DNA of 64,000 bases, from positions 1,291-65,290 of the forward strand of contig JAQVCB010000003.1 in the NCBI GenBank assembly GCA_028689995.1, given 5' to 3'. This DNA comes from Candidatus Gastranaerophilales bacterium. GTDB taxonomy: Bacteria; Cyanobacteriota; Vampirovibrionia; Gastranaerophilales; UBA9579. The notes under the pieces were generated by a model. It was not told the origin of the DNA and searched no databases. It worked only from the letters and a program-made list of their open reading frames with translations. Below are positions 3,486-64,000 of this stretch, piece by piece; position 1 is the stretch's first letter, and the number at the start of each line of letters is the position of its first letter. Both the position numbers and the translations under genes were made by a program.

Positions 3486-3677
3486 TTTAATTTCTCACTC
3501 ATTTTAATTACTAAAATTAATCATATTATAGTTGAAAAGTTAAAAAAAATGTTAACAATGTTGAAAAGCTATTAAATTTATCGGAAAATGCTTTTAATGT
3601 AGTATTGAACTTTGACAGGGAAAGTACATATAGAACTTCTATAAAAATACTGAAAGAGCTATAAAGACAGGAATAAT

Positions 3678-16702: not shown

Positions 16703-17110
16703 TCAACATTCTAAAATGAAGAATCTGATTTTTTCAAGAAAATTCCTCGGAATAACCGAGACCATAGGAATTTTAATTTCAGGATAATCTTCTTCAAAGA
16801 ATTCCTTAATAATAAGATCGTTATAAACACATAACAGTATTAGATCAGGCTTAATTTCTTCGATTTGATCAGGAGAAAAAGTCTTATAATTTTTGAAATC
16901 TTCTTGCTCAAAGTATAAATATTTACTGTCTGCAAATCCAATAATATTGAGTTTTGATAGATCATAATTGTCTAAAATATTTTCTGCCAAAAGACCTGTT
17001 CCATATGCAAGAATTTTTTTATCTGCATATTTTTTAGCCAGAGTATCAAGATATTTTTGTAATTTCTTTTTTTCTAATATGTTCTTTAATTCATCACTTG
17101 TTTTACCCAT
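16703..17110 (-). CDS. Small hypothetical protein with a Rossmann-like domain shared with the C-terminus of the radical-SAM protein at 32322-33560
   Basis: 135 aa. KILAYGTGLLAENILDNYDLSKLNIIGFADS... aligns by eye with KICFWGAGDLAKIILDAYDFSKLNVLGFIDG... in the radical-SAM protein. Confidence 0.6.
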   Translation of the reverse strand: MGKTSDELKNILEKKKLQKYLDTLAKKYADKKILAYGTGLLAENILDNYDLSKLNIIGFADSKYLYFEQEDFKNYKTFSPDQIEEIKPDLILLCVYNDLIIKEFFEEDYPEIKIPMVSVIPRNFLEKIRFFILEC

Positions 17111-53126: not shown

Positions 53127-53200
<74 letters not shown>

Positions 53201-53221
53201 ATTTACTCAATTCCCAAACAT

Positions 53222-53294
53222 GGGGGTGTAGCTCAGTTGGTAGAGCGCTTGCCTTGCACGCATGATGTCAGGAGTTCGAGTCTCCTCACCTCCA
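53222..53294 (+). tRNA. tRNA-Ala (anticodon UGC)
   Basis: Acceptor GGGGGTG/CACCTCC includes the G3:U70 alanine identity pair. Anticodon loop CTTGCAC and T arm AGGAG-TTCGAGT-CTCCT. There is one U:U mismatch in the anticodon stem. No encoded CCA. Confidence 0.93.
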
Positions 53295-53296
53295 GA

Positions 53297-53336
53297 TTAA
53301 AGACCACGTTCATTACGAATGTGGTCTTTAATTTTT
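53297..53336 (+). terminator. Rho-independent terminator after the tRNA pair
   Basis: ttaaagaccac-N13-gtggtctttaa (11-bp stem) followed by ttttt. Confidence 0.8.
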
Positions 53337-53522
53337 GGAAAATCACGCACATAGCGGGCTTTGCGGAGTTTGATTTTGGTAGAGAATTTATTTCGGAGAA
53401 AATCAGCAGATTTTTCGGGAGAAAATAAGGAGAATTCTCAGATTGATTTTTTAGTGACGCCGTGGGTATTTCAGGCAAATAAAAAAGCCATTGATATTTA
53501 TTAACGACTTCTTAAAACAAAA

Positions 53523-55178
53523 TTAAAGACATAAAATATTTTCTTGTTCTTGCCAATCGAGAGCTTTTATACTGCATAATTTTTCTACAGTTAGATCGGC
53601 GGGCTGATTTCCTGATAAAATACATTCTACAATTCTGGGGGATAGAATATTTAACCTTATTGCTTTCTTGACATAGTCAACGTTATGCTCTTTTTCGGAT
53701 TCAGCAATTTCTTTTGCTGTTTCAAACTTGCCTTCTCTAATCTGTTTATTCCAATGATGTCCTTTGGCTACAATATTTATAAGGAACGAGTTGATGTTAA
53801 CTTCTTTCTCTTCAGAATTATTGACTACTAAAACACTTCCTTTTCTTGATGTGGTCGATATTCTTACATCTCTTGAAATTGTTATTGCTTCTTCTGGTTC
53901 GTTTTTAATTTTATCAAGTAATGGAACTTCAGTAATAAAACTCTCTAATCCTTTAATAAGCTGGTTCTTACAAATTATAATCTCTATTTTATCTTTGAAT
54001 AAAAATACTTTTGCCAGAATTGCACGCATAAAATCATTTGCCAAATCAAGCGTTGAAGCTTTCGATAGTATCATTTTTTGCTTATGAATATCAAAATCAG
54101 AGATGTATTCCTGAATTCTGTCGTTATCAGATAAAAAATCTGATATTTCCTTCCTTACAAAATTTTCGATTTCTCCTGCCGGAATTTTGGTAAGTGTTCC
54201 TGCTTGTTTTTTATTGCCCTGAATTATCGCTTGACTTACATAATAACGGTAGCGTTTTCCTCTTGTATTACTATGGGAAGGATTCATTCTATTTCCTTTG
54301 TCATCGAATATTTTACCTGCAAGTAAGGACGGAGACTTTGCCGTAAGTTTGCATTTGTTGTTATTACGGTTTTTTTCCAGAAGTTCCTGGGCTTTCTTAA
54401 AAATATATTCCTCAATAATTCCTTCGTGTTCTCCGTTGTAACACGTGTCTTTATGCTTAACCATTCCAATATAAGTCTTGTTTGACAGAATTTTATACAA
54501 ATTACCTTTGCTAAAATTTCTGCCTGTCCTGCTTTTGATATTATTTTCTTCAAGATAACTTTTTAATTTAAAAACACTTTCGAATTCTATATATTTTTCA
54601 AAAATAGTTTCAAGAGTTGGGATGTACTCCTTGTCGGGAACGAGTTTTTTATCTTCAATTTTATATCCAATCGGTACAGATCCGCCGATCCATATTCCTT
54701 TTTTGGCTGAGGCTGCTTTTTTATCTCTGATTCTCTCTCCTGTAACTTCTCTTTCAAATTGGGCAAAAGATAGAAGAATATTAAGTGTTAGTCTGCCCAT
54801 GCTGGTTGTAGTATTGAACTGCTGGGTTATAGAAACAAAGGTAACTGACCGTTTATCAAATAATTCAACAATTTTAGAAAAATCCATAAGGGAACGAGTT
54901 AGCCTGTCTATTTTGTATACTAAAACTGTATCAACTTCGCCATTTTCTATATCTTGAAAAAGCTTTTTAAGGGCAGGTCTTTCAAGAGTCCCGCCTGAGA
55001 AGCCTCCATCGTTATATTGTTTATCGATTAAAACCCAACCTTCATGTTGTTGGGATTTTATGTAAGACTCGCAGGCTTCTCTTTGGGCATCAAGTGAGTT
55101 AAAATCCTGTTCCAAGCCTTCTTCAGAGGATTTTCTTGTATAAATTGCACAACGGATTGTTTTCTTCTTTGCTTCCAT
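53523..55178 (-). CDS. Large serine recombinase (integrase)
   Basis: 551 aa. The N-terminal resolvase domain is IRCAIYTRKSSEEGLEQDFNSLDAQREAC (catalytic Ser) with VLVYKIDRLTRS. A recombinase domain and a long C-terminal extension follow. Confidence 0.9.
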   Translation of the reverse strand: MEAKKKTIRCAIYTRKSSEEGLEQDFNSLDAQREACESYIKSQQHEGWVLIDKQYNDGGFSGGTLERPALKKLFQDIENGEVDTVLVYKIDRLTRSLMDFSKIVELFDKRSVTFVSITQQFNTTTSMGRLTLNILLSFAQFEREVTGERIRDKKAASAKKGIWIGGSVPIGYKIEDKKLVPDKEYIPTLETIFEKYIEFESVFKLKSYLEENNIKSRTGRNFSKGNLYKILSNKTYIGMVKHKDTCYNGEHEGIIEEYIFKKAQELLEKNRNNNKCKLTAKSPSLLAGKIFDDKGNRMNPSHSNTRGKRYRYYVSQAIIQGNKKQAGTLTKIPAGEIENFVRKEISDFLSDNDRIQEYISDFDIHKQKMILSKASTLDLANDFMRAILAKVFLFKDKIEIIICKNQLIKGLESFITEVPLLDKIKNEPEEAITISRDVRISTTSRKGSVLVVNNSEEKEVNINSFLINIVAKGHHWNKQIREGKFETAKEIAESEKEHNVDYVKKAIRLNILSPRIVECILSGNQPADLTVEKLCSIKALDWQEQENILCL

Positions 55179-55615
55179 TATTTTTTAATTCCGAAGAAAA
55201 CTTTTCCGTTCCACTGCGTGCCTGTTATTTCTCTTGCTATTGCAGACAAGCTTTTGTAATATTTGCCTCTATATTCAAAACCTTTATCCAGTGCAATAAC
55301 TTCGTGCTTTTCTCCTTTATATTCCCTTATCAACTTTGTCCCTGTCTTTATTTCAGAATTTTGTCGACAATGTTTATTTATTTCTTTTTCTTTTATTTCT
55401 TCTTTTTTGGCGAGTTTATCGGCAAGTTTATCCAATTGTTTCTGTGTTCGTGCCGAATAACTTCCTTGCTTTTTTGCTTGTAATTCCCACACAATATGCT
55501 TTATCAGGAATTCTTTCCTCGCATGTTGCGGAGAATTTGTTTTAAAGAGCTTTTTCCATTTTTTAATTAACTCTTCTCTGGAAAGTTGTTGGAGTTGTTC
55601 TATTGTTTCTTGCAT
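55178..55615 (-). CDS. DUF2924-family protein (frequent partner of large serine recombinases)
   Basis: 145 aa. GTKLIREYKGEKHEVIALDKGFEYRGKYYKSLSAIAREITGTQWNGKVFFG follows the DUF2924 pattern. Its stop overlaps the recombinase ATG (TAATG). Confidence 0.78.
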   Translation of the reverse strand: MQETIEQLQQLSREELIKKWKKLFKTNSPQHARKEFLIKHIVWELQAKKQGSYSARTQKQLDKLADKLAKKEEIKEKEINKHCRQNSEIKTGTKLIREYKGEKHEVIALDKGFEYRGKYYKSLSAIAREITGTQWNGKVFFGIKK

Positions 55616-55692
55616 GTCTGTAATCCTTTCTAAACTTGATAACAGACATATTAATCACTCTGCTATTCTCAGAAATCAAGTGTTTTCTAACT

Positions 55693-55992
55693 TTATATTT
55701 CTCCATTAATAATTTCTTTTAAAGCCTGTTCCTGTGTAGTTCCGTTTTCTTTACAATAAGAGTCAAGCCACTTAAAATATTGATCAATTTCTTTACTGCA
55801 AAGAGCTTTCATATTTTCTTTGGCTTTACAATCCTCCATAACAATATATTCAAGCAATGCTTTTGCTGTAGCTTTACTTGGTTTCTCTATATCATCGTGA
55901 AGAGTGGATATTATACCGATTATGTCATCAATCAGGATTTTAAAATCATTTCTGATTCACTGAAGCATTATCTTTGAATTGATTTCAGTCAT
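55693..55992 (-). pseudogene. 100-codon reading frame with good RBS-ATG and an in-frame TGA at codon 12 (nonsense-disrupted or recoded small gene)
   Basis: On the minus strand, AAGGAG is followed by 7 nt and then the ATG at 55992. The frame reads MTEINSKIMLQ-TGA(55959-55957)-IRNDFKILIDDIIGIISTLHDDIEKPSKATAKALLEYIVMEDCKAKENMKALCSKEIDQYFKWLDSYCKENGTTQEQALKEIINGEI-TAA. That leaves 87 stop-free codons after the TGA in AT-rich DNA. Confidence 0.5.
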
Positions 55993-56628
55993 AAAAAACT
56001 CCTTATACTTGTAACAGTTGTATGTTAGCTTACATAAGAAGATTGGGGTTATATTGTGTCTGTATGTTAAAATGCCGATGCAAGCATAGGGGCTGCAACC
56101 ATACTTAAAGGTGAAGTAAAGAGGTCTGGATACTCTGATAACATAACAGAATTCATGCAAATATGGCAGCCCGATAAATGCGGAACCAATGAAAATCTGA
56201 AAAAGCATGCAAATAAAAATATTTGAGGTTTATGCTGAGAATAAAACTTCGGCTGCTTATAGAATATTCTGGAATTATGGTCCGGACAAAAAGAATATTT
56301 CTAGTATTGGTATTACACTACATTCATAATTGTTAAAAATATTAAGCATATAAAAAATAACAATACTAATTTAATCAATCAATGATAAACATAAATATTT
56401 ACTACTAAAAATTTCTAGATAAATTTTTTATTTATTGCATAAAGTTATAAATTTGCCATTTTTTCTCTTTAATAAAGAGACCTAAAAGTCAATTATAGCT
56501 TAAAGATTTTTCTTGCAAAAAAAGTTATCTTGATTTTTAAGCATAATATATTTTTCTTACATGAAAAATTTTTCCTAATTTTTATATGGAAGCTTTTGCT
56601 ATCCGTAAAATAAATAAGGAAAATTCTT

Positions 56629-57945
56629 ATGAAAACCCCAAACATTTTAGAAGTACTTTACAAAAATCCAAACGAACTAAAACCGAATCCAAAGAATGCA
56701 AGAACGCATTGTAAGAAACAAGTTCATCAGATGAAAAAGAGTATCAATATCCTAGGGTTTAACAATCCAGTACTTATTGATTCTGATGATGTAATTATTG
56801 CAGGTCACGGGCGTGTTTTAGCAGCGATTGAACTTGGACTTGAAAATATTCCCACTATTTGTTTAACTCATATGACGCCAGAGCAAGTTCGCGCTTACAT
56901 AATTGCAGATAATCGTCTAGCAGAGCAAGCAGGCTGGGATAAAGAAATTTTAAAAATCGAGCTTGATTTTTTGATGAACCTTGATGCTGGCTTTGGCTTT
57001 GATGCTACAATCACTGGCTTTGACATCCCAGATATTGATTTAATTATCAATTCTGAAGCTATTGAGGATGCAAAAAAAGAAAAAGACGATCCAGTAGATG
57101 ACCTTCCTGAAGAAAGTGAAGTAGAAAAAAGAGTATCTTTAGATGATTTGTGGCAATTGGATAATCACAAACTGTTTTGCGGTGATGCTCTTAAAAAGGA
57201 AAGTTTTAAGACTTTGATGGGGCAAGAGCTAGCCAAAATAGCATTTGTAGATATGCCATACAATGTTAAAATACAAGGAAATGTTACTAAGCAAAAACAT
57301 CATAAAGAATTTGCCTATGCCTCTGGGGAAATGAATAATACTCAATTCACTAATTTTATGAAAACTGCAATGACTTTACTTGCAGCTTATTCTGTTGACG
57401 GATCAATTCACTTCCATTGTATGGATTGGAGACATATGCAAGAAATACTTGAGGCCGGACTTTCAGCTTATTCAAGCATAATTAATCTGGCAATATGGGA
57501 TAAAATAACGGCTGGAATGGGATCGTATCTGAGGTCCCAACATGAGCTTATATATATATTTAAAAATGGTACAGCTCCACATATAAACAATATTGAGCTT
57601 GGTATCTATGGTCGTTATCGGACTAATGTCTGGAAATATCGTGGAATGCATGCTTCAAATCCTGAAGCTATTGAGCTTTTAAAGCTACATCCTACAGTAA
57701 AACCAGTTGCTATGATTATGGATGCTATTCTTGACGTATCAAAGCCTGGAGATATAGTTCTTGATTCCTTTGCGGGCTCAGGCTCAACCCTGTTGGCTGC
57801 AGAACGAACCAAGCGTAAAGCTAGAGTAATTGAACTAGAGCCGAAATATGCCGATGTAATTCTATATCGCTGGGAAAAATTAACAGGAAAAAAGGCTAAA
57901 TTAATTAAAAATATAGGAGATATGACTTGTGGAAGACAACAATAA
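56629..57945 (+). CDS. ParB-like N-terminal nuclease domain fused to an N6/N4 DNA methyltransferase (orphan methylase)
   Basis: 438 aa. The ParB/Srx-type N-terminus has NPKNARTH and IIAGHGR. The methyltransferase motif IV variant is FVDMPYN and motif I is DSFAGSGSTLLAAE (beta-class order). Confidence 0.85.
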   Translation: MKTPNILEVLYKNPNELKPNPKNARTHCKKQVHQMKKSINILGFNNPVLIDSDDVIIAGHGRVLAAIELGLENIPTICLTHMTPEQVRAYIIADNRLAEQAGWDKEILKIELDFLMNLDAGFGFDATITGFDIPDIDLIINSEAIEDAKKEKDDPVDDLPEESEVEKRVSLDDLWQLDNHKLFCGDALKKESFKTLMGQELAKIAFVDMPYNVKIQGNVTKQKHHKEFAYASGEMNNTQFTNFMKTAMTLLAAYSVDGSIHFHCMDWRHMQEILEAGLSAYSSIINLAIWDKITAGMGSYLRSQHELIYIFKNGTAPHINNIELGIYGRYRTNVWKYRGMHASNPEAIELLKLHPTVKPVAMIMDAILDVSKPGDIVLDSFAGSGSTLLAAERTKRKARVIELEPKYADVILYRWEKLTGKKAKLIKNIGDMTCGRQQ

Positions 57946-58312
57946 CAACAACTATGAGGTGGGCTATAAACGCCCACCTACTGAACATCAGTTCAAGCCT
58001 GGGCACTCAGGTAACGCTAAAGGGCGCCCAAAGTTAATTAAGGAATTTAAAACCGATCTACGTGAAGAATTAGAAGAAATTATCATAGTTCAAGAGGGCG
58101 GAAAATCGAAACCTATAACTAAGCAACGAGCGTTGATAAAAAAACTGATTTTTAAAGCACTTGGGGGAGAACTAGGCGCACAAAAAGCCTTAACAAGTCT
58201 AATTGCTTTTCATTTAGATGATACTACCTCAGAAGTTAAAGATTTATCTGTAGAAGACCAAAAATTACTAGATAAATATATTTACAAAAATGGAAAGGAG
58301 AAAAAACAATGA
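57929..58312 (+). CDS. DUF5681-like protein (putative terminase small subunit)
   Basis: 127 aa. YKRPPTEHQFKPGHSGNAKGRPK is the characteristic N-terminal motif. The gene is coupled by overlap to both the upstream methylase gene and the downstream terminase large-subunit gene. Confidence 0.62.
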   Translation: MEDNNNNNYEVGYKRPPTEHQFKPGHSGNAKGRPKLIKEFKTDLREELEEIIIVQEGGKSKPITKQRALIKKLIFKALGGELGAQKALTSLIAFHLDDTTSEVKDLSVEDQKLLDKYIYKNGKEKKQ

Positions 58313-59814
58313 TTAACCCAGAGGAAATACTTTTATACGCTGCTCTAGCGCAAAATTTCAATATGTTCCTTGAAAAATGTTACAACGAGATTGATGGTGG
58401 ACAAAAATATACAGAAACAATAGCGACAGAATTAACTATTGATAAACTTAATTGTGTTAGCAACGGAGACATAAAACGTCTTATTATCAATGTTCCACCA
58501 CGAACACTAAAGACAACCATAGTTTCTATTGCATATACAGCATGGCTTTTGGGACATAACCCTAAACTCAAAATTCTATGCATCAGTTATGGCGATGATT
58601 TGGCAAAAGAATTTTCATTCAAAACTCGTCAAATTATGCAAAGCGAATGGTATAAAAAAACTTTTCTTAACACAAGGCTGAAAAAAGGTCGCCAACAAGA
58701 CGATTTTTTTGAGACAACAAAAAATGGTTTTAGAAAAGCAACCTCGCTTGGAGGTTCATTAACCGGACATGGCGCAGATATAATTATTATTGATGACCCA
58801 CAAAAAGCGCAGGAAATTTTATCTGATAAAATCAGAAAAAGCTCAAATGAAACATTTTCCAATACAATTATTTCGCGTTTAAATAATAAAAATGAGGGAA
58901 AAATCATTTTAGTCGCACAAAGATTACATTTAGATGATTTTTCTAACTATGTTCAAAAGTTTGGAAAGTGGGATGTTCTTGCTCTACCTGCAATAGCAGA
59001 GGGTGACGAAACTTACACATTATCAGACGACAGAATCTTAAGACGTAAAGTGGGAGATGTGATAAATCCTGAGCTTGAGTCCCTAAACAATTTAGAAGAA
59101 ATCAGAGAAGGTATGGGTGAATTCAATTTTTCGGCACAATATCAGCAAAATCCAATCCCTACAAAAGGTAATATTATTAATTTTGATGATTTTCAATTTT
59201 ATGAAAGTATTCCTGTTGCGTCCGAAGGTTTAATAATGCAAAGCTGGGATGTGGCCATGAAGACAGGTGATAATAATGATTTTTCGGTTTGTATTACAGC
59301 ACAAATCATTAATAAAGTTGCGTATATTCTTGATATTTGTCGATATAAATTTGATTTTACAAACGTATTGGCACAAGTCAAAATAATGCAAACTAAATAT
59401 GGGGCTCAAAGTATTATCATTGAAGATGCAGGAGTCAGCATTCCACTTATTCAGCTACTAAGAAATGATGAAGTATATGTAATCCCATACCATCCAACAA
59501 TATCAAAAGTAGAAAGAGCCTCTGCATGCACATATATGATACGTTCTCATCGTGTCCTACTGCCTAAAGCTGCACCATGGCTTGACTGTTTTAAAAGCGA
59601 GGTACTGGCTTTTCCATTTGGTGTTCATGACGATCAAGTTGATGCATTCTCGCAATTAATAGAAGAAATCAATAATATCCAGAATAATTACTCAATTGTA
59701 GAAATGGCAGAAGCAATGAAGCGAAGCGAACAAAAAGCACCTGAAGAACAATTTTGGCAAAAGGCTATAACCGGATACAAAAATAAACCAATAGGATGGA
59801 AACCGCCATTTTAA
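58309..59814 (+). CDS. Phage terminase large subunit-like ATPase/nuclease
   Basis: 501 aa. It has a deviant Walker A (VPPRTLKTT), Walker B (ADIIIIDDPQK) and LVAQRLHLDDF. A C-terminal RNaseH-like nuclease region includes HDDQVDA. Confidence 0.8.
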   Translation: MINPEEILLYAALAQNFNMFLEKCYNEIDGGQKYTETIATELTIDKLNCVSNGDIKRLIINVPPRTLKTTIVSIAYTAWLLGHNPKLKILCISYGDDLAKEFSFKTRQIMQSEWYKKTFLNTRLKKGRQQDDFFETTKNGFRKATSLGGSLTGHGADIIIIDDPQKAQEILSDKIRKSSNETFSNTIISRLNNKNEGKIILVAQRLHLDDFSNYVQKFGKWDVLALPAIAEGDETYTLSDDRILRRKVGDVINPELESLNNLEEIREGMGEFNFSAQYQQNPIPTKGNIINFDDFQFYESIPVASEGLIMQSWDVAMKTGDNNDFSVCITAQIINKVAYILDICRYKFDFTNVLAQVKIMQTKYGAQSIIIEDAGVSIPLIQLLRNDEVYVIPYHPTISKVERASACTYMIRSHRVLLPKAAPWLDCFKSEVLAFPFGVHDDQVDAFSQLIEEINNIQNNYSIVEMAEAMKRSEQKAPEEQFWQKAITGYKNKPIGWKPPF

Positions 59815-59843
59815 TATAAATCTCCCGAAAGGGAACTTTTACA

Positions 59844-60056
59844 TTAGAACTCAAACAATTCTTTAACCGGAACCTCAAGTGCATTTGCAAGTTTTATTAT
59901 TGTTCGAAGGTTTGGGGATTTTTCGCAGCGTTCAATTTTACCGATATATGAAATATCTAAATCAGCCAAAGATGATAGCATACTTTTTGTGTATCCTTTG
60001 GCTTTCCTTAGTTTTTGTACTTTTGTTGCAAATTGCTTATAAACATCTTCATTCAT
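59844..60056 (-). CDS. XRE-family helix-turn-helix regulator
   Basis: 70 aa. RKAKGYTKSMLSSLADLDISYIGKIERCEKSPNLRTIIKLANALEV is a classic Cro/CI HTH. Confidence 0.85.
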   Translation of the reverse strand: MNEDVYKQFATKVQKLRKAKGYTKSMLSSLADLDISYIGKIERCEKSPNLRTIIKLANALEVPVKELFEF

Positions 60057-60121
60057 TCTTTTATTGTGATATGCTTGGTTTGCGAAGGGATAGACTAGCA
60101 GTCCAGTAATAAAAATTTGTT

Positions 60122-60138
60122 ACGTCAAGAATTGACAT
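60122..60138. promoter_or_regulatory. Operator-like inverted repeat ACGTCA-N5-TGACAT in the divergent XRE / small-protein intergenic region
   Basis: The sequence is acgtcaagaattgacat. The same half-sites and spacing recur at 61987-62005. Confidence 0.45.
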
Positions 60139-60208
60139 AGACGCATGATAAACTGACATAAAAGTATTCAAAGAAGTTTAGACCTTTTATTTAAAAGGAG
60201 AAAATATT

Positions 60209-60502
60209 ATGAAGCGAGTTGTTTTATTGAGTATTTTGCTATTACTAAATATAAATACTTGCCAAGCACAAGTTGTCTATCAGGGATCTAATGGATATTA
60301 CATATTAGTATGTGATTCTTTAAATCAACATTGTATTCAAAAGCCAGTAAGTTATGCTGATCCTAAGGTAACAGGAGCTAGCACATCTTATGCACAAACA
60401 ACTAATAATATAAGAAATACATTAAATAATGTCCAAAGTGCAGAGTACACAGCACAACAAGCAATATTTACAGCAAAAAACGTGTTTACTAAAAAATATT
60501 AG
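60209..60502 (+). CDS. Small secreted protein of unknown function
   Basis: 97 aa. AAGGAG RBS and signal peptide MKRVVLLSILLLLNINTCQA. The mature part is Q/T/N-rich. Confidence 0.55.
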   Translation: MKRVVLLSILLLLNINTCQAQVVYQGSNGYYILVCDSLNQHCIQKPVSYADPKVTGASTSYAQTTNNIRNTLNNVQSAEYTAQQAIFTAKNVFTKKY

Positions 60503-60517
60503 AAGGAGAAAATTATT

Positions 60518-60685
60518 ATGGCAGAACAAAAATTTTGAGCGAAAATCTATATCAAAACAGTCGCAAATCCTATAACAGTTGAAGTATTTGCGGAAAACTC
60601 TAGCATCGCTCAGCAAATTATTGAGGCAAGACCCGACTTTAAGTCCTTTTACATACGTCCGCAAGTACGAGATTTCTTTTCATAA
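60518..60685 (+). pseudogene. 56-codon frame with good RBS-ATG and an in-frame TGA at codon 7
   Basis: AAGGAGAAAATTATT precedes the ATG at 60518. The frame reads MAEQKF-TGA(60536-60538)-AKIYIKTVANPITVEVFAENSSIAQQIIEARPDFKSFYIRPQVRDFFS-TAA. Confidence 0.4.
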
Positions 60686-60727
60686 TAAATTGTAGAACCT
60701 TATTATAATAAGGTAGAAGGAACATAT

Positions 60728-61921
60728 ATGCTTATAAAAGAACAACAACATCAGCTGGAACAACTTATGCTGTCAGAAGATTTGGAAGAATTGAACGGAT
60801 TAACCGGAGATTTCAACATATTTAATGCATTAAATATGCAAAACAATGAAATCAGGCACTCTAATTTTTTGGGCTGGTTACTTAAACCATATGAGAGTCA
60901 TAACTTAGGTGATTATTTTCTTAAAGAAATACTGAAAATATCCCTAAGACATCATTCAAGAAATGAATCTATCAAAACTAGGCTTGAAGATATCATTTTT
61001 AATAGCTTTGAGGATTCTGAAATAGTATTGGAAAAGTTAACAGATAAAAATCGCAGAATAGATATTTTTATTGATAGTCCAGAAAATCAATTTATATGTT
61101 TAATTGAAAACAAGATATGGTCTGGGGAAGGTATTGACCAACTGAAAGATTACAAAACATACATAGAAAATCATGAAAAATATAAAAATTATAAGCATAA
61201 GGTTTTTATATTTTTAACTCCAAATACTGATTATAACAAAGAAGCCCTGTATAAAAATTATATCAGAATTGACTATAGTCAAATATGTGAAGTTATAAAT
61301 AAAATGCTTAAATTTAAAGAAAAATCAATGTCTGAAGAGGTAAGATTTTTTATTGAACATTATAAAAAAATGGTGGAAAGGAATATTATGGGAAATACTG
61401 ATGAAGAAATAGTAACACTGTGCAAAAAAATTTATAGAGAACACAAAGAAGCAATTGATTTGATTATTGAAAATACAGATATAAACACAGAGTTAATGGA
61501 TCTTTTAATAAAAATCGTCACAGAAAAAAGTGAAATTGTAAATCCGCATAGTTCCTCTATTCATTCTTTACCAAAAGGGATTAAAGATTTAGAAAAATTA
61601 AAATATGGGGAAATGGAAAACTGGCTTCAAGGTAGTATTATTGGGCTATATTTGGCAAAAGGGAAAATGAATGTTGATTTTGGCATAAGTATACAAAAAA
61701 CAGATACAAAATTGGAGGACCGAAGAAATTTGGTATCTATTCTCGAAAAAGAATATGGCAATTTTAGAAATAGAAATGATTCTTGGCGTTGGTTCTCATT
61801 AGAAACTATTAGCCAAGATGAATTTTGCGAAATCGAGGATATTAATGAATTTAAAGTTAAGATTGAACAAAAATTTGCTAGTCATATAAATAAATTTTGC
61901 AATATATTAAATAATATCTAA
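60728..61921 (+). CDS. PD-(D/E)XK nuclease-superfamily protein with a helical C-terminal domain
   Basis: 397 aa. The N-terminal core has NEIRHSNFLGWLL and RRIDIFIDSPENQFICLIENKIW (D...E-x-K). The C-terminal ~220 aa are unassigned. Confidence 0.7.
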   Translation: MLIKEQQHQLEQLMLSEDLEELNGLTGDFNIFNALNMQNNEIRHSNFLGWLLKPYESHNLGDYFLKEILKISLRHHSRNESIKTRLEDIIFNSFEDSEIVLEKLTDKNRRIDIFIDSPENQFICLIENKIWSGEGIDQLKDYKTYIENHEKYKNYKHKVFIFLTPNTDYNKEALYKNYIRIDYSQICEVINKMLKFKEKSMSEEVRFFIEHYKKMVERNIMGNTDEEIVTLCKKIYREHKEAIDLIIENTDINTELMDLLIKIVTEKSEIVNPHSSSIHSLPKGIKDLEKLKYGEMENWLQGSIIGLYLAKGKMNVDFGISIQKTDTKLEDRRNLVSILEKEYGNFRNRNDSWRWFSLETISQDEFCEIEDINEFKVKIEQKFASHINKFCNILNNI

Positions 61922-61983
61922 TTTTTATATGAATTGTATAAATTAGTATAACTTAATGATTATAAGAGATGAATAATTTAATT

Positions 61984-62010
61984 AACTACGTCATAAATTG
62001 ACGTAGTTTT
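61984..62010. promoter_or_regulatory. Perfect 10-bp-arm palindrome (aactacgtca-taaat-tgacgtagtt) plus a T-run. It could be the terminator of the nuclease gene, an operator 40 bp upstream of the WYL gene, or both
   Basis: Read directly from the sequence. The inner half-sites ACGTCA-N5-TGACGT match the 60122-60138 site. Confidence 0.5.
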
Positions 62011-62049
62011 AATATATAATAAAATAGTAAATCAACTTTTGAGGTAAAA

Positions 62050-63021
62050 ATGTCACGATTAACAAAAGCAGAAGAAATAATTCAACTAGCAATGCTTTTT
62101 CAAAATAGTTATTCTGGACTATGTATTGATGATATAAAAGATCATTTTGAATGTTCTCGCCGTAGTGCAGAACGGATGAAAGCCCTGCTTTTTGATATGT
62201 TTCCTGAAAAGATTGAAGAAGTTCAAACAAATGATAAGAAAAAACGCTGGCGATTTGTTAAAGGAACAATGAATGCTTTAATTTCATTTACAGCAGATGA
62301 TTTTGCTAATCTTGAATATCTAAAAGGCTTATCCAATGACAAAAACCGCAGTAAGGATTTGGATGAACTAATTGCAAAAATCAAGGCATTAACTCCACAA
62401 AAAAACTTAAGATCTTTAGATACAGATATTTCAGCAATACTTGAATCCGAAGGTTTTGCAGTACGGCAATATTCAAGGATTAAGGCGGATGCTGAATCTT
62501 TGGGGAAATTGCGTGAAGCATTATTGGCATTTAAAAAGATTCAATTCAAATATTTCATAGATACTAAAGAAAAAACAATCACTCTAAGCCCTTATGGCAT
62601 AATCATTTCTGATAAGTATTATCTTGTCGGGTTTAATGAATATGTAAATGACTTGAGGCTTTATTTAGTTGATAAAATAAAGGATTTGGTAATTCTTGAT
62701 GAATATTTTGAGCGTGATGAAAGCTTTTCCTTGAATAAATATTGCAACAATTCTTTTGGAATTTATCAGGAAAAGCCTTTGGATATCACATTGGAGTTTA
62801 ATAAATACGTTGCAGAAGATGTATTAAATTATCATTTTCACCCGAGTCAAAAAATTAATGAGCAAGATAATGGCAATATCCAAGTAAAATTTACTTCAGG
62901 CGGAACTTACGCTATCTATCAAGAACTCTTTAAGTGGGGGTGTGATGTCAAAATCGTTAAACCGACAAAATTAAAAGAAAATTACAAAAAATATTTGCAA
63001 GATGTATTAGATAATTTCTAA
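62050..63021 (+). CDS. WYL-domain transcriptional regulator (HTH-WYL-WCX architecture, BrxR/CapW-like)
   Basis: 323 aa. The N-terminal wHTH has CIDDIKDHFECSRRSAERM. The WYL core is KIQFKYF...TLSPYGIIISDKYYLVGFNE. The C-terminal domain ends in VKIVKPTKLKENYKKYL. Confidence 0.85.
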   Translation: MSRLTKAEEIIQLAMLFQNSYSGLCIDDIKDHFECSRRSAERMKALLFDMFPEKIEEVQTNDKKKRWRFVKGTMNALISFTADDFANLEYLKGLSNDKNRSKDLDELIAKIKALTPQKNLRSLDTDISAILESEGFAVRQYSRIKADAESLGKLREALLAFKKIQFKYFIDTKEKTITLSPYGIIISDKYYLVGFNEYVNDLRLYLVDKIKDLVILDEYFERDESFSLNKYCNNSFGIYQEKPLDITLEFNKYVAEDVLNYHFHPSQKINEQDNGNIQVKFTSGGTYAIYQELFKWGCDVKIVKPTKLKENYKKYLQDVLDNF

Positions 63022-63237
63022 GTTATATATTGTGTTAAAGACTTGATTTATTACCAGAAATGAGTGATGTATTGTGCTGCGGATAGACTTAAGGCATTAT
63101 TTGTAGATATTGGAGAGCAAAGAAAAAAATGATAATAGAATCAATAGAAAAAAGAAAAGATAAAATAATTGCATTTGCTCTTGATTACTGAAACCAAAAC
63201 GAGTTGTTTTTGGCAAAATGAAAAGGAGAAACTTACT

Positions 63238-63957
63238 ATGAATTCTTACTCAAATTATACATTTGAAAACTTTATAAAAGGTGAAAATAATGAATTTGGT
63301 TACTCAATGGCACTAGAAGTGGCTAAAAATCCAGGAAAGAAAAATAATCCATTGTTTATATATGGAGATGTAAGCACTGGAAAAACTCACTTATTAAAAG
63401 CAATAGAGCATTATGTTTTAGCGAATTGTCCTGATTTAAAGATAAAATATATAAACATGGAAATGTTTACGAATGACCTGGTTAACTCTATTAGAAATGA
63501 CAAAATGAACGCTTTTAGAGTGCAACATCGTCAGGTGGACGTTTTTTTGCTTGATGACATTCAGTTTATCGAGGGAAAAGAAATTACTCAAGAAGAATTG
63601 TTTCATACCTTTAATACCCTTTATGAATCAGGAAAACAGATTATTTTAACAAGTAATAAATCTCTAAACAATATTTCTACTCTTACTAAACGACTTCTAA
63701 GCCGACTTGAAAGCGGTATAATTTGTGAAATCAAGCCTATTAATAGCAAAATATTTATTCAAAATTTTATTGAAGATCAGATAATAACTTTAACTGAGGA
63801 TATAACAGCTTTAAATTCATTAAAAGAAAATGTTGATCTATTTTATGAGCTTGAAAATGCTGATATTAGAAAATTAAAAGCTATATTAAACACAGTTATC
63901 CAATATTCTAAAATTTCGAAAAAGCCACTAACCGAAATAATTAAAACATTAATTTAA
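63238..63957 (+). CDS. DnaA-like AAA+ ATPase consisting only of DnaA domain III (no domain I/II, no DNA-binding domain IV)
   Basis: The ATG lies 8 nt after AAGGAG. Has YTFENFIKGENNEFG, Walker A GDVSTGKTHLL, Walker B VDVFLLDDIQF and box VII-like ILTSNKS...RLLSRLESG. The sensor II region reads DIRKLKAILN. The protein ends about 20 aa later. Confidence 0.8.
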   Translation: MNSYSNYTFENFIKGENNEFGYSMALEVAKNPGKKNNPLFIYGDVSTGKTHLLKAIEHYVLANCPDLKIKYINMEMFTNDLVNSIRNDKMNAFRVQHRQVDVFLLDDIQFIEGKEITQEELFHTFNTLYESGKQIILTSNKSLNNISTLTKRLLSRLESGIICEIKPINSKIFIQNFIEDQIITLTEDITALNSLKENVDLFYELENADIRKLKAILNTVIQYSKISKKPLTEIIKTLI

Positions 63958-64000
63958 AAAATTCATAAATATCAAGAAAGAAAATAAAATGGTTAATTCG

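Follow-up and report, generated by a model that had tools for sequence, protein, structure and literature searches.

By analogy, the described systems that appear closest in function to the element reported here are the phage satellites of the PICI/SaPI type, together with their minimal relatives (PICMI, VEIMEs and PICI-like tycheposons). PICI/SaPI satellites are site-specific integrative islands that lack virion and lysis genes and carry phage-derived packaging gene(s), cargo and XRE-type regulators; they encode tyrosine integrases and a primase/replicase with an origin, and they are packaged by redirecting the large terminase subunit (TerL) of a helper phage via a small subunit (TerS) of their own, or through the helper cos site. 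The cf-PICIs encode both their own large and small terminase, so that packaging is independent of the helper terminase, as well as portal, major capsid protein, protease and head-tail connectors, and borrow tails only. In P4-like satellites a conserved mobility and hijacking core (tyrosine integrase, primase and capsid-size factors, with reliance on the helper's cos-specific terminase) is combined with a hypervariable slot of anti-phage systems. The minimal satellites, found in metagenomes, are small integrative elements, some located beside tRNA genes and some with serine recombinases, that have packaging genes and no capsid remodelling genes (10.1101/2022.07.26.501625, PMC10803314, 10.1101/2020.12.28.424599). 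Here we describe an element found in 64 kb of DNA from a Candidatus Gastranaerophilales bacterium (G000:C2:1291-65290; this whole stretch is called the window below), in which the genes for a large serine integrase and a DUF2924 protein stand next to three overlapping genes for a ParB-methyltransferase fusion, a DUF5681 protein and a complete TerL, with no recognisable virion genes. Judging from sequence comparisons, the element very probably belongs to a family of capsid-less terminase islands, a working category and not a published one.

Compared with PICIs and SaPIs, the island likewise has a site-specific integrase with an attachment (att) site, no virion or lysis genes, phage-derived packaging genes, cargo and an XRE-type regulator, and the one relative with both ends defined, at 13.2 kb, is within their size range. 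It differs in that the integrase is a serine recombinase paired with DUF2924, no replication module is recognisable, and packaging would involve its own full-length TerL and a ParB-methyltransferase. Possession of a terminase is shared with the cf-PICIs, whereas none of their portal, capsid, protease or connector genes occurs in the island family. The resemblance to P4 lies in the conserved core with variable anti-phage cargo, although the core genes are unrelated. As for the minimal satellites, the accessible parts of the three reports cited above mention TerS, or a capsid gene in tycheposons, and not a large terminase, and they describe mostly tyrosine recombinases and replication modules; VEIMEs are shown there in particles as concatemers. 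Our literature search, whose coverage left out most subscription journals, returned no paper combining DUF5681 with the island architecture, found DUF2924 with a terminase only in Wolbachia WO phages, which have portals, and yielded no description of a capsid-less element with TerL among reports on satellites, VEIMEs and tycheposons. The capsid-less terminase island is a widespread kind of mobile island and, apparently, one not described before.

The Window Carries a Complete Integration and Packaging Core Without Virion Genes

The source genome is a metagenome-assembled genome (MAG), 89% complete and 6% contaminated, and contig C2 extends 13.6 kb past the window. Analysis of the core region showed that all five genes are full length with intact motifs and stand in the order given by the initial annotation, i.e., a serine recombinase coupled to DUF2924, a gap, an overlapping trio and a reversed XRE gene. 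The integrase gene (53523..55178, - strand) is intact and encodes 551 aa with a Resolvase domain at residues 11-162 (Pfam 1.8e-39), a Recombinase domain at residues 184-270 (Pfam 2.4e-16) and the N-terminal YTRKSS...Q catalytic motif; it matches the phrog_95 integrase family (5e-101 over residues 3-377) and phrog_14161 (over residues 459-548), and the resolvase catalytic domain, recombinase domain and long C-terminal region are those of a large serine recombinase. The stop codon of the DUF2924 gene (55178..55615, - strand; Pfam 5.3e-44) overlaps the integrase start, indicating translational coupling. In the AF2 model of the DUF2924 protein (pLDDT 84), residues 1-51 resemble SAP/Rho-N-type domains (VIA-align Z 7.6, rmsd 2.3, 48 residues aligned to 1a62) and residues 88-145 resemble the SAND-like C-terminal domain of CcrM/MPND (VIA-align Z 6.1), whereas no match was obtained by Foldseek or by sequence against the PDB. 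Based on the model, DUF2924 is predicted to be a DNA-binding accessory or partner protein of the integrase, with Z values that are middling.

The packaging trio is transcribed divergently from the integrase pair. Its first gene (56629..57945, + strand) encodes a fusion of a ParB/Srx domain (Pfam ParB_N 8e-4) and a beta-class N6/N4 DNA methyltransferase (Pfam N6_N4_Mtase 4.4e-25) with PHROG matches to phrog_498 (1.4e-108) and phrog_620 (4e-45) and with motifs GHGR, DMPY and FAGSGST all present. It overlaps by 17 nt the DUF5681 gene (57929..58312, + strand; Pfam 5.9e-19), which occupies the small-terminase position and has an invariant N-terminal motif, G..PP..(F)..G.SGN..GR. This gene in turn overlaps by 4 nt the intact TerL gene (58309..59814, + strand), whose 501-aa product is of the Terminase_6 type (phrog_38 1.7e-94; Terminase_6N/6C domains) and matched the phage TerL ATPase domains 8dgc and 4bij in a profile search. 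The Walker A residue K68, the Walker B residues D162/D163 and the nuclease residues D314/E372/D442/D445 are invariant in 61-62 of 62 island-linked TerLs, and the same catalytic residues are conserved in island and phage clades alike. This invariance of ATPase and nuclease residues points to purifying selection and suggests a working enzyme rather than a relic.

The initial annotation had noted that no portal or head gene appears in the 4.2 kb after TerL. This observation extends over the 17.8 kb from the TerL stop to the end of the contig, where no portal, capsid, tail or lysis gene was found save in one small patch of phage debris described below, and Pfam Phage_portal and Phage_capsid have no match anywhere in the source genome.

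The gap between the two gene groups is a divergent intergenic region that measures 1013 bp (55616..56628), not 0.9 kb as first annotated. An Rfam scan of the window region returned two tRNAs only and no family in this gap. The gap contains two direct repeats of about 33 nt (56506-56538 and 56550-56583), 44 nt apart, ATTTTTCTTGCAAAAAAAGTTATCTTGATTTTT-like and immediately 5′ of the ParB-methyltransferase start, possibly promoters or operators of the packaging operon that have been duplicated; no common promoter/operator word of at least 12 nt was found between the leader of this operon and the late-operon leaders of the phages resident in the genome. It also holds a 100-codon open reading frame (ORF) with an in-frame TGA (55693-55992, - strand) that has no homologue among 259 loci or in the source genome. 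A second small ORF with an early in-frame TGA lies at 60518-60685 (+ strand) and has a weak match in locus L015 (38% over 50 residues). Reading the in-frame-TGA region with genetic code 4 gave a gene set that was no better.

The Portal-Less Arrangement Recurs Across Several Phyla

In order to find relatives, an alignment of the closest TerL homologues was used as the seed to scan three collections (genomes, metagenomes and IMG/VR); for genome contigs a scan with the single protein was null while the alignment-based scan was productive. The genome and metagenome sets each comprise 80 loci. ORFs of related loci were taken by a simple longest-ORF rule, host taxonomy was taken from the titles of the records bearing related TerLs, and core genes were identified by BLAST against the window proteins, so that divergent integrases and small DUF5681 genes are undercounted. 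The gene contexts compared are those of these sets, the closest TerL relatives (P0002-P0006, 79-67% identity) lying outside the neighbourhood comparison.

The results showed about 186 loci with the portal-less arrangement, spread over several phyla; their hosts are Gastranaerophilales/Melainabacteria-type MAGs, Brevinema, many Alphaproteobacteria, some Gammaproteobacteria and Acidobacteriota. Near TerL, the ParB-methyltransferase was found in 67 of the 80 genome loci, DUF5681 in 51, the serine integrase in 38 and DUF2924, adjoining the integrase, in 31; no further gene family occurred in more than 25, and there was no conserved gene of portal size. A portal was absent from all 80 metagenome loci, and no locus combined integrase or DUF2924 with a portal. 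A dereplicated set of 99 ORFs (250 aa or longer) lying 3′ of island TerLs contained no Pfam family more than four times, and the 25 commonest families include no virion family; the large ORFs after island-type TerLs that were checked encode Dcm, EcoRII, a histidine kinase, a sugar epimerase and Ro60.

The nearest phage relatives could be separated from the islands on both gene content and phylogeny. In IMG/VR, a TerL identity of 36% or more goes with short contigs that encode integrase or DUF2924, whereas contigs at 34% or below are long and carry ParB-methyltransferase, TerS (phrog_6299), TerL, portal (phrog_113) and head genes. Two uncultured contigs of this phage type, L133 and L138, share with the island the ParB-methyltransferase, a small gene, a Terminase_6-type TerL and the same catalytic motifs, but their small gene is TerS phrog_6299, non-homologous to DUF5681, the phrog_113 portal and head genes come next, and their TerLs form a separate clade. 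In a FastTree tree of 158 TerL sequences, one branch (SH-like support 98) splits off 48 rows that include 21 of 21 portal-linked public-contig rows and 0 of 62 integrase-linked rows; the root of this tree is unreliable because the outgroup branch is very long.

A Second Copy in the Same Genome and a Relative Bounded at Both Ends

The same MAG contains a second, divergent five-gene core on contig C80 (locus L092, 2209-7942). Here tRNA-Val, integrase, DUF2924, TerL, DUF5681 and ParB-methyltransferase follow one another in a different arrangement, with all genes on one strand and TerL running directly into the DUF2924-integrase pair. In C80 as in the window, 228 bp separate the tRNA from the integrase stop, and the spacers align. 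Identity between the two copies is 57% for the integrase, 70% for DUF2924 and 37% for TerL, and the C80 TerL falls elsewhere in the TerL tree than the window TerL. Given that the integrase and DUF2924 are closer than the TerLs and that the gene order differs, the integration and packaging modules seem to have been shuffled between lineages and orientations, yet kept together.

A metagenomic relative, L245, defines both ends of an island. Its tRNA-Ser (3587-3677) is matched by an exact 20-nt copy of the tRNA 3′ end (AATCCCTTCGTCTCCGCCAG) at 16857-16876, and the 13.2-kb interior holds the five core genes, five ORFs without match and a cargo of a Piwi-domain Argonaute (729 aa) followed by a protein with a DpnII/MboI-type nuclease domain (375 aa). 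Since L245 is bounded by att repeats, a complete member of the family lacks recognisable virion genes and leaves little space to fit any.

The Left End Marks Integration at tRNA and tmRNA 3′ Ends

The element stands next to tRNA-Ala(TGC) (53221..53295, + strand; ARAGORN and Rfam), the 3′ end of which is the likely integration target on the attL side; the preceding tRNA-Ile(GAT) (53127..53200, + strand; ARAGORN, Rfam tRNA 69 bits) belongs to the chromosomal flank. A terminator hairpin that can be read directly in the sequence (aaagaccac/gtggtcttt, then a T run; 53299..53336, + strand) follows tRNA-Ala, as one also does 3′ of the tRNA or tmRNA in related loci. The island left terminus is then a conserved block, AAATCACGCACATAGCGGGCTTTGCGG, with a small CGC...GCG hairpin (53340..53366), which was aligned with the C80 copy and with locus L021. 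Beginning 87 nt after tRNA-Ala is a 58-bp inverted repeat, GAGAATT-N44-AATTCTC (53382..53439). It encloses two direct repeats that the initial annotation had placed, exactly, at 53391-53403 and 53413-53426. GAGAAWWT motifs occur three times within 45 bp here and 26 times across the whole 64 kb, a clustering beyond chance.

The inverted repeat is a feature of the family. The pattern was found at 23 sites in 20 of 259 loci, on the integrase side and 77-89 bp past the 3′ end of every mapped adjacent tRNA or tmRNA (Ala, Val, Ser and tmRNA), and its arms start 51 bp apart in the window, C80 and L021 alike. A ccGCACagtGCGGGC-type block occupies the equivalent position at most of the 23 sites, where the terminator and the small GC hairpin block come before the inverted repeat and a second terminator-like sequence comes after it. 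Within the source genome, each of the two island copies contributes a single site and no others exist. About 30 related loci have a tRNA or tmRNA gene past the integrase 3′ end, in tail-to-tail orientation.

In L016, L027 and L191 the inverted-repeat site is doubled, each copy being preceded by a variably decayed copy of the tRNA or tmRNA 3′ end, which points to tandem insertion by elements that each bring a replacement 3′ end, a terminator and an inverted repeat. From this signature the crossover is placed inside the 3′ end of tRNA-Ala, to the left of the direct repeats, and 53296-53522 seems to be the element's own terminal arm. The earlier proposal that the direct repeats form part of an att or regulatory site was thus right in spirit, in that they lie within an inverted repeat at the integrase-proximal end of 20 islands, while the crossover itself is further left. 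The inverted repeat is a candidate binding site for the integrase, DUF2924 or the terminase. In L016 (1485-3600), a lone Fic/DOC gene before the integrase is enclosed by two nearly identical att regions, each with a copy of the tmRNA 3′ end, the hairpin block and the 58-bp repeat; this unit may have been left behind by a tandem insertion or may itself be a miniature element without an integrase.

The right end of the window island was sought with the att region, BLAST of which against the genome gave no convincing attR match, and inverted matches to the island left terminus were at chance level. The chromosomal synteny of response regulator, ORF, tRNA-Ile and tRNA-Ala is retained in L095, L096 and L097 (relatives G019, G013 and G005), where the contigs break about 20-190 bp past tRNA-Ala; the nearest genomes are only about 75% identical, so no empty-site allele was available. 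The contig breaks suggest that a repeat, an rRNA gene or a variable island stands there too.

Defence Cargo and Phage Debris Lie Downstream of TerL

TerL is followed by a convergent XRE-family regulator gene (59844..60056, - strand; Pfam HTH_3 8e-12), a 97-aa ORF without Pfam or PHROG match (60209..60502, + strand), a PD-(D/E)XK_4 nuclease gene (60728..61921, + strand; Pfam 1.7e-31; PADLOC candidate PDC-S26, 9e-77), a gene for an HTH-WYL-WCX regulator of BrxR/CapW type (62050..63021, + strand; Pfam WYL 8.8e-9 and WCX 2.4e-7; PADLOC WYL 4.8e-26) and a gene for a DnaA-type AAA+ protein comprising domain III only (63169..63957, + strand; Pfam Bac_DnaA 3.7e-60), a cargo or accessory gene. Paralogues of the latter occur on contigs C44 and C166 (75% and 54% identity), and the one on C44 lies near another WYL regulator, a hint of further islands of similar make-up. 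Further downstream, the defence and cargo genes include RmrT/RmrA (the Rosmer pair), a type III Res/Mod restriction-modification (R-M) pair, DUF4391 together with an SNF2/HKD helicase, and another WYL gene that is truncated where the contig stops.

Parts of this region recur in related islands. About 14 loci have an XRE homologue (49-71% identity) at this position, and variable cargo between it and TerL; this slot is often filled by an RtcB RNA ligase gene and a 114-160-aa partner (e.g., L015 11614-13172) and is empty in the window and in L181, where XRE directly follows TerL. The PD-(D/E)XK_4 nuclease recurs after XRE, and WYL-regulator homologues of 66-76% identity are present. By these comparisons, XRE, PD-(D/E)XK_4 and WYL can be described as a semi-conserved right-hand backbone of the Melainabacteria-type islands, followed by swappable anti-phage cargo. 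Cargo in other islands includes RtcB, DUF1643, Dcm, Fic, type I R-M and prokaryotic Argonaute (pAgo) genes.

The phage-like patch covers about 650 bp at L001 5634-6287 (window-equivalent 64343-64996), 4.5-5 kb after TerL. The patch holds an intact gene for an 88-aa membrane protein with a faint likeness to holins (phrog_23321) and the C-terminal 68 codons of a tail-completion/Neck1 gene (phrog_26). Both are about 75% identical at the DNA level to genes on contigs C79 and C168 of the same MAG. C79 (L093) carries a myovirus-like prophage region with a TerS-like gene, TerL, phrog_113 portal, minor head protein, Neck1, protease and tail sheath, and C168 (L094) carries a related head module with a TerS-like gene, TerL, phrog_113 portal, minor head protein and Neck1. 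The TerLs of C79 and C168 gave no tblastn match to the island TerL at 1e-4 and sit on a very long tree branch; being unrelated, they indicate that the debris comes from another phage lineage and not from the island's own past. The C79 and C168 phages are candidate helpers. The C168 head module also abuts DndC-like and SbcC-like genes, and the WYL gene on C168 has 80.6% DNA identity to the WYL gene at the right end of C2.

Discussion

The reading that best fits these data is close to one of those offered by the initial annotation, a phage-parasitic island that keeps its own terminase. We regard it as an even call that the window element is an intact member of a family of integrative islands, built from a serine integrase with DUF2924 and a ParB-methyltransferase/DUF5681/TerL operon, that travels as a satellite. 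In such a scheme the integrase would target the 3′ end of a tRNA or tmRNA gene for insertion, with the element supplying its own copy of that 3′ end, a terminator and the 58-bp inverted repeat. A signal, probably helper-phage infection or induction, would lead the element to excise, and TerL, with DUF5681 as the DNA-recognition subunit, would cut the island DNA and pump it into procapsids made by the helper, so that the defence cargo would spread as a phage satellite. We infer excision, helper dependence and packaging by the island's own terminase. Movement by self-directed packaging into helper capsids, taken by itself, is conceivable and falls a little short of an even chance.

Several observations weigh against the satellite reading. 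Comparison of DUF5681 with known TerS proteins gave no significant match by Foldseek against the PDB, VIA-align, BFVD or a PDB profile search; the best hit of a wide VIA-align search had Z 3.7, with NV1 TerS at Z 3.1, only other DUF5681 proteins or clusters were found in BFVD and in the protein atlas, and hhalign gave a probability of 0.4% against the TerS of the nearest phage clade. With no fold or profile match, we infer a TerS role for DUF5681 from its position and its translational coupling to TerL. No primase, helicase or Rep family was present among the conserved genes, nor could an origin be recognised in the core, whereas headful terminases as a rule require concatemers; a DnaA-like AAA+ gene is, however, present in the window. 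Every element also keeps several small unassigned ORFs. Of 47 loci flanked on each side by 9 kb or more, only 26 have a serine integrase or DUF2924 within reach, and in 21 no serine integrase occurred within 10 kb. Circular or terminally repeated contigs were not encountered among the 240 related loci. For the window island itself, the tRNA-Ala 3′ end has no second copy in the assembly, fuzzy or exact, down to 13 exact bases, and contig C2 stops 24.3 kb after attL with no right end found. Finally, the TerL of the resident phages is unrelated to that of the island, with no functional link seen, and since the genome is a MAG, the sharing of one cell by island and phage contigs is assumed.

Some of these points would suit an alternative that we consider unlikely, namely that the element is mobile through its serine integrase while the trio acts inside the cell and not for transfer. 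The trio might be an anti-phage module whose terminase serves as a decoy or competitor, cutting or wrongly packaging the DNA of an invading phage or blocking its procapsids, or else a DNA-processing or maintenance device for the island itself. The wealth of defence genes in the islands agrees with such a role, as do the lack of any replication module or concatemer-forming function among the genes found, a DUF5681 protein not recognisable as TerS and the 21 of 47 wide-flank loci that have the trio without a nearby serine integrase; the conserved TerL nuclease and ATPase suit any enzymatic role. In contrast, the trio is constant while the defence genes vary, the opposite of what is seen for known island defence genes; it is repeatedly tied to the integrase/DUF2924 pair, in two gene orders and across phyla; and its nearest relatives are genuine packaging operons with portals following.

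The initial annotation also allowed for a cryptic prophage that had lost its morphogenesis genes. A one-off eroded prophage at tRNA-Ala, stripped of head, tail and lysis genes and later overrun by defence genes, would account for the descent of the trio from phage packaging operons, for the tail-completion fragment and small phage membrane-protein gene past TerL and for the missing right end. All five core genes of the window are, however, full length with intact motifs, the portal-less arrangement is conserved in about 186 loci across phyla and occurs twice in the source genome, L245 is complete between its att repeats, and the debris belongs to the C79/C168 lineage. The comparative data already appear largely to rule this explanation out, and we regard it as very improbable. 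Weakest of all, and hardly credible, is an ordinary prophage of unusual gene order whose structural genes lie past the end of C2 or on another contig, for although C2 ends inside a WYL gene with no attR found and two other contigs of the MAG hold phage head genes, extension of the analysis from 64 kb to the contig end left the right end unreached and revealed non-phage defence genes rather than structural genes over the 17.8 kb after TerL, which is as far as the assembly reaches, the head-gene contigs have their own unrelated TerS and TerL beside the portal, and island-type TerLs never share a locus with a portal anywhere in the family. Even taken together, the two prophage explanations are improbable.

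Known satellites either borrow the helper TerL (SaPI/PICI, P4 and PICMI) or bring a whole capsid (cf-PICI). If the satellite reading is true, islands that combine a complete terminase with the lack of both a capsid and recognisable replication genes would follow a third strategy. Tentatively, the islands may represent a new class of satellite that needs only the procapsids and tails of a helper, whose own complete terminase recognises an island site, perhaps within the DUF5681 gene or formed by the 58-bp inverted repeat, and packages the island unaided, and which shuttles defence genes in at least four bacterial phyla. This idea is testable, as several cultured strains appear from record titles to carry members of the family: Methyloceanibacter superfactus R-67175, Methylobacterium oxalidis NBRC 107715, Ruegeria spp., Sphingomonas prati CGMCC 1.15645 and Neoroseomonas eburnea LMG 31228. 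The integrases would be an uncommon instance of a serine integrase family targeting tRNA and tmRNA 3′ ends, with DUF2924 as their candidate partner. The family ranges from gut Melainabacteria-type MAGs to marine and soil Proteobacteria, and satellite travel would explain how pAgo, R-M, Rosmer and RtcB modules move between such distant bacteria.

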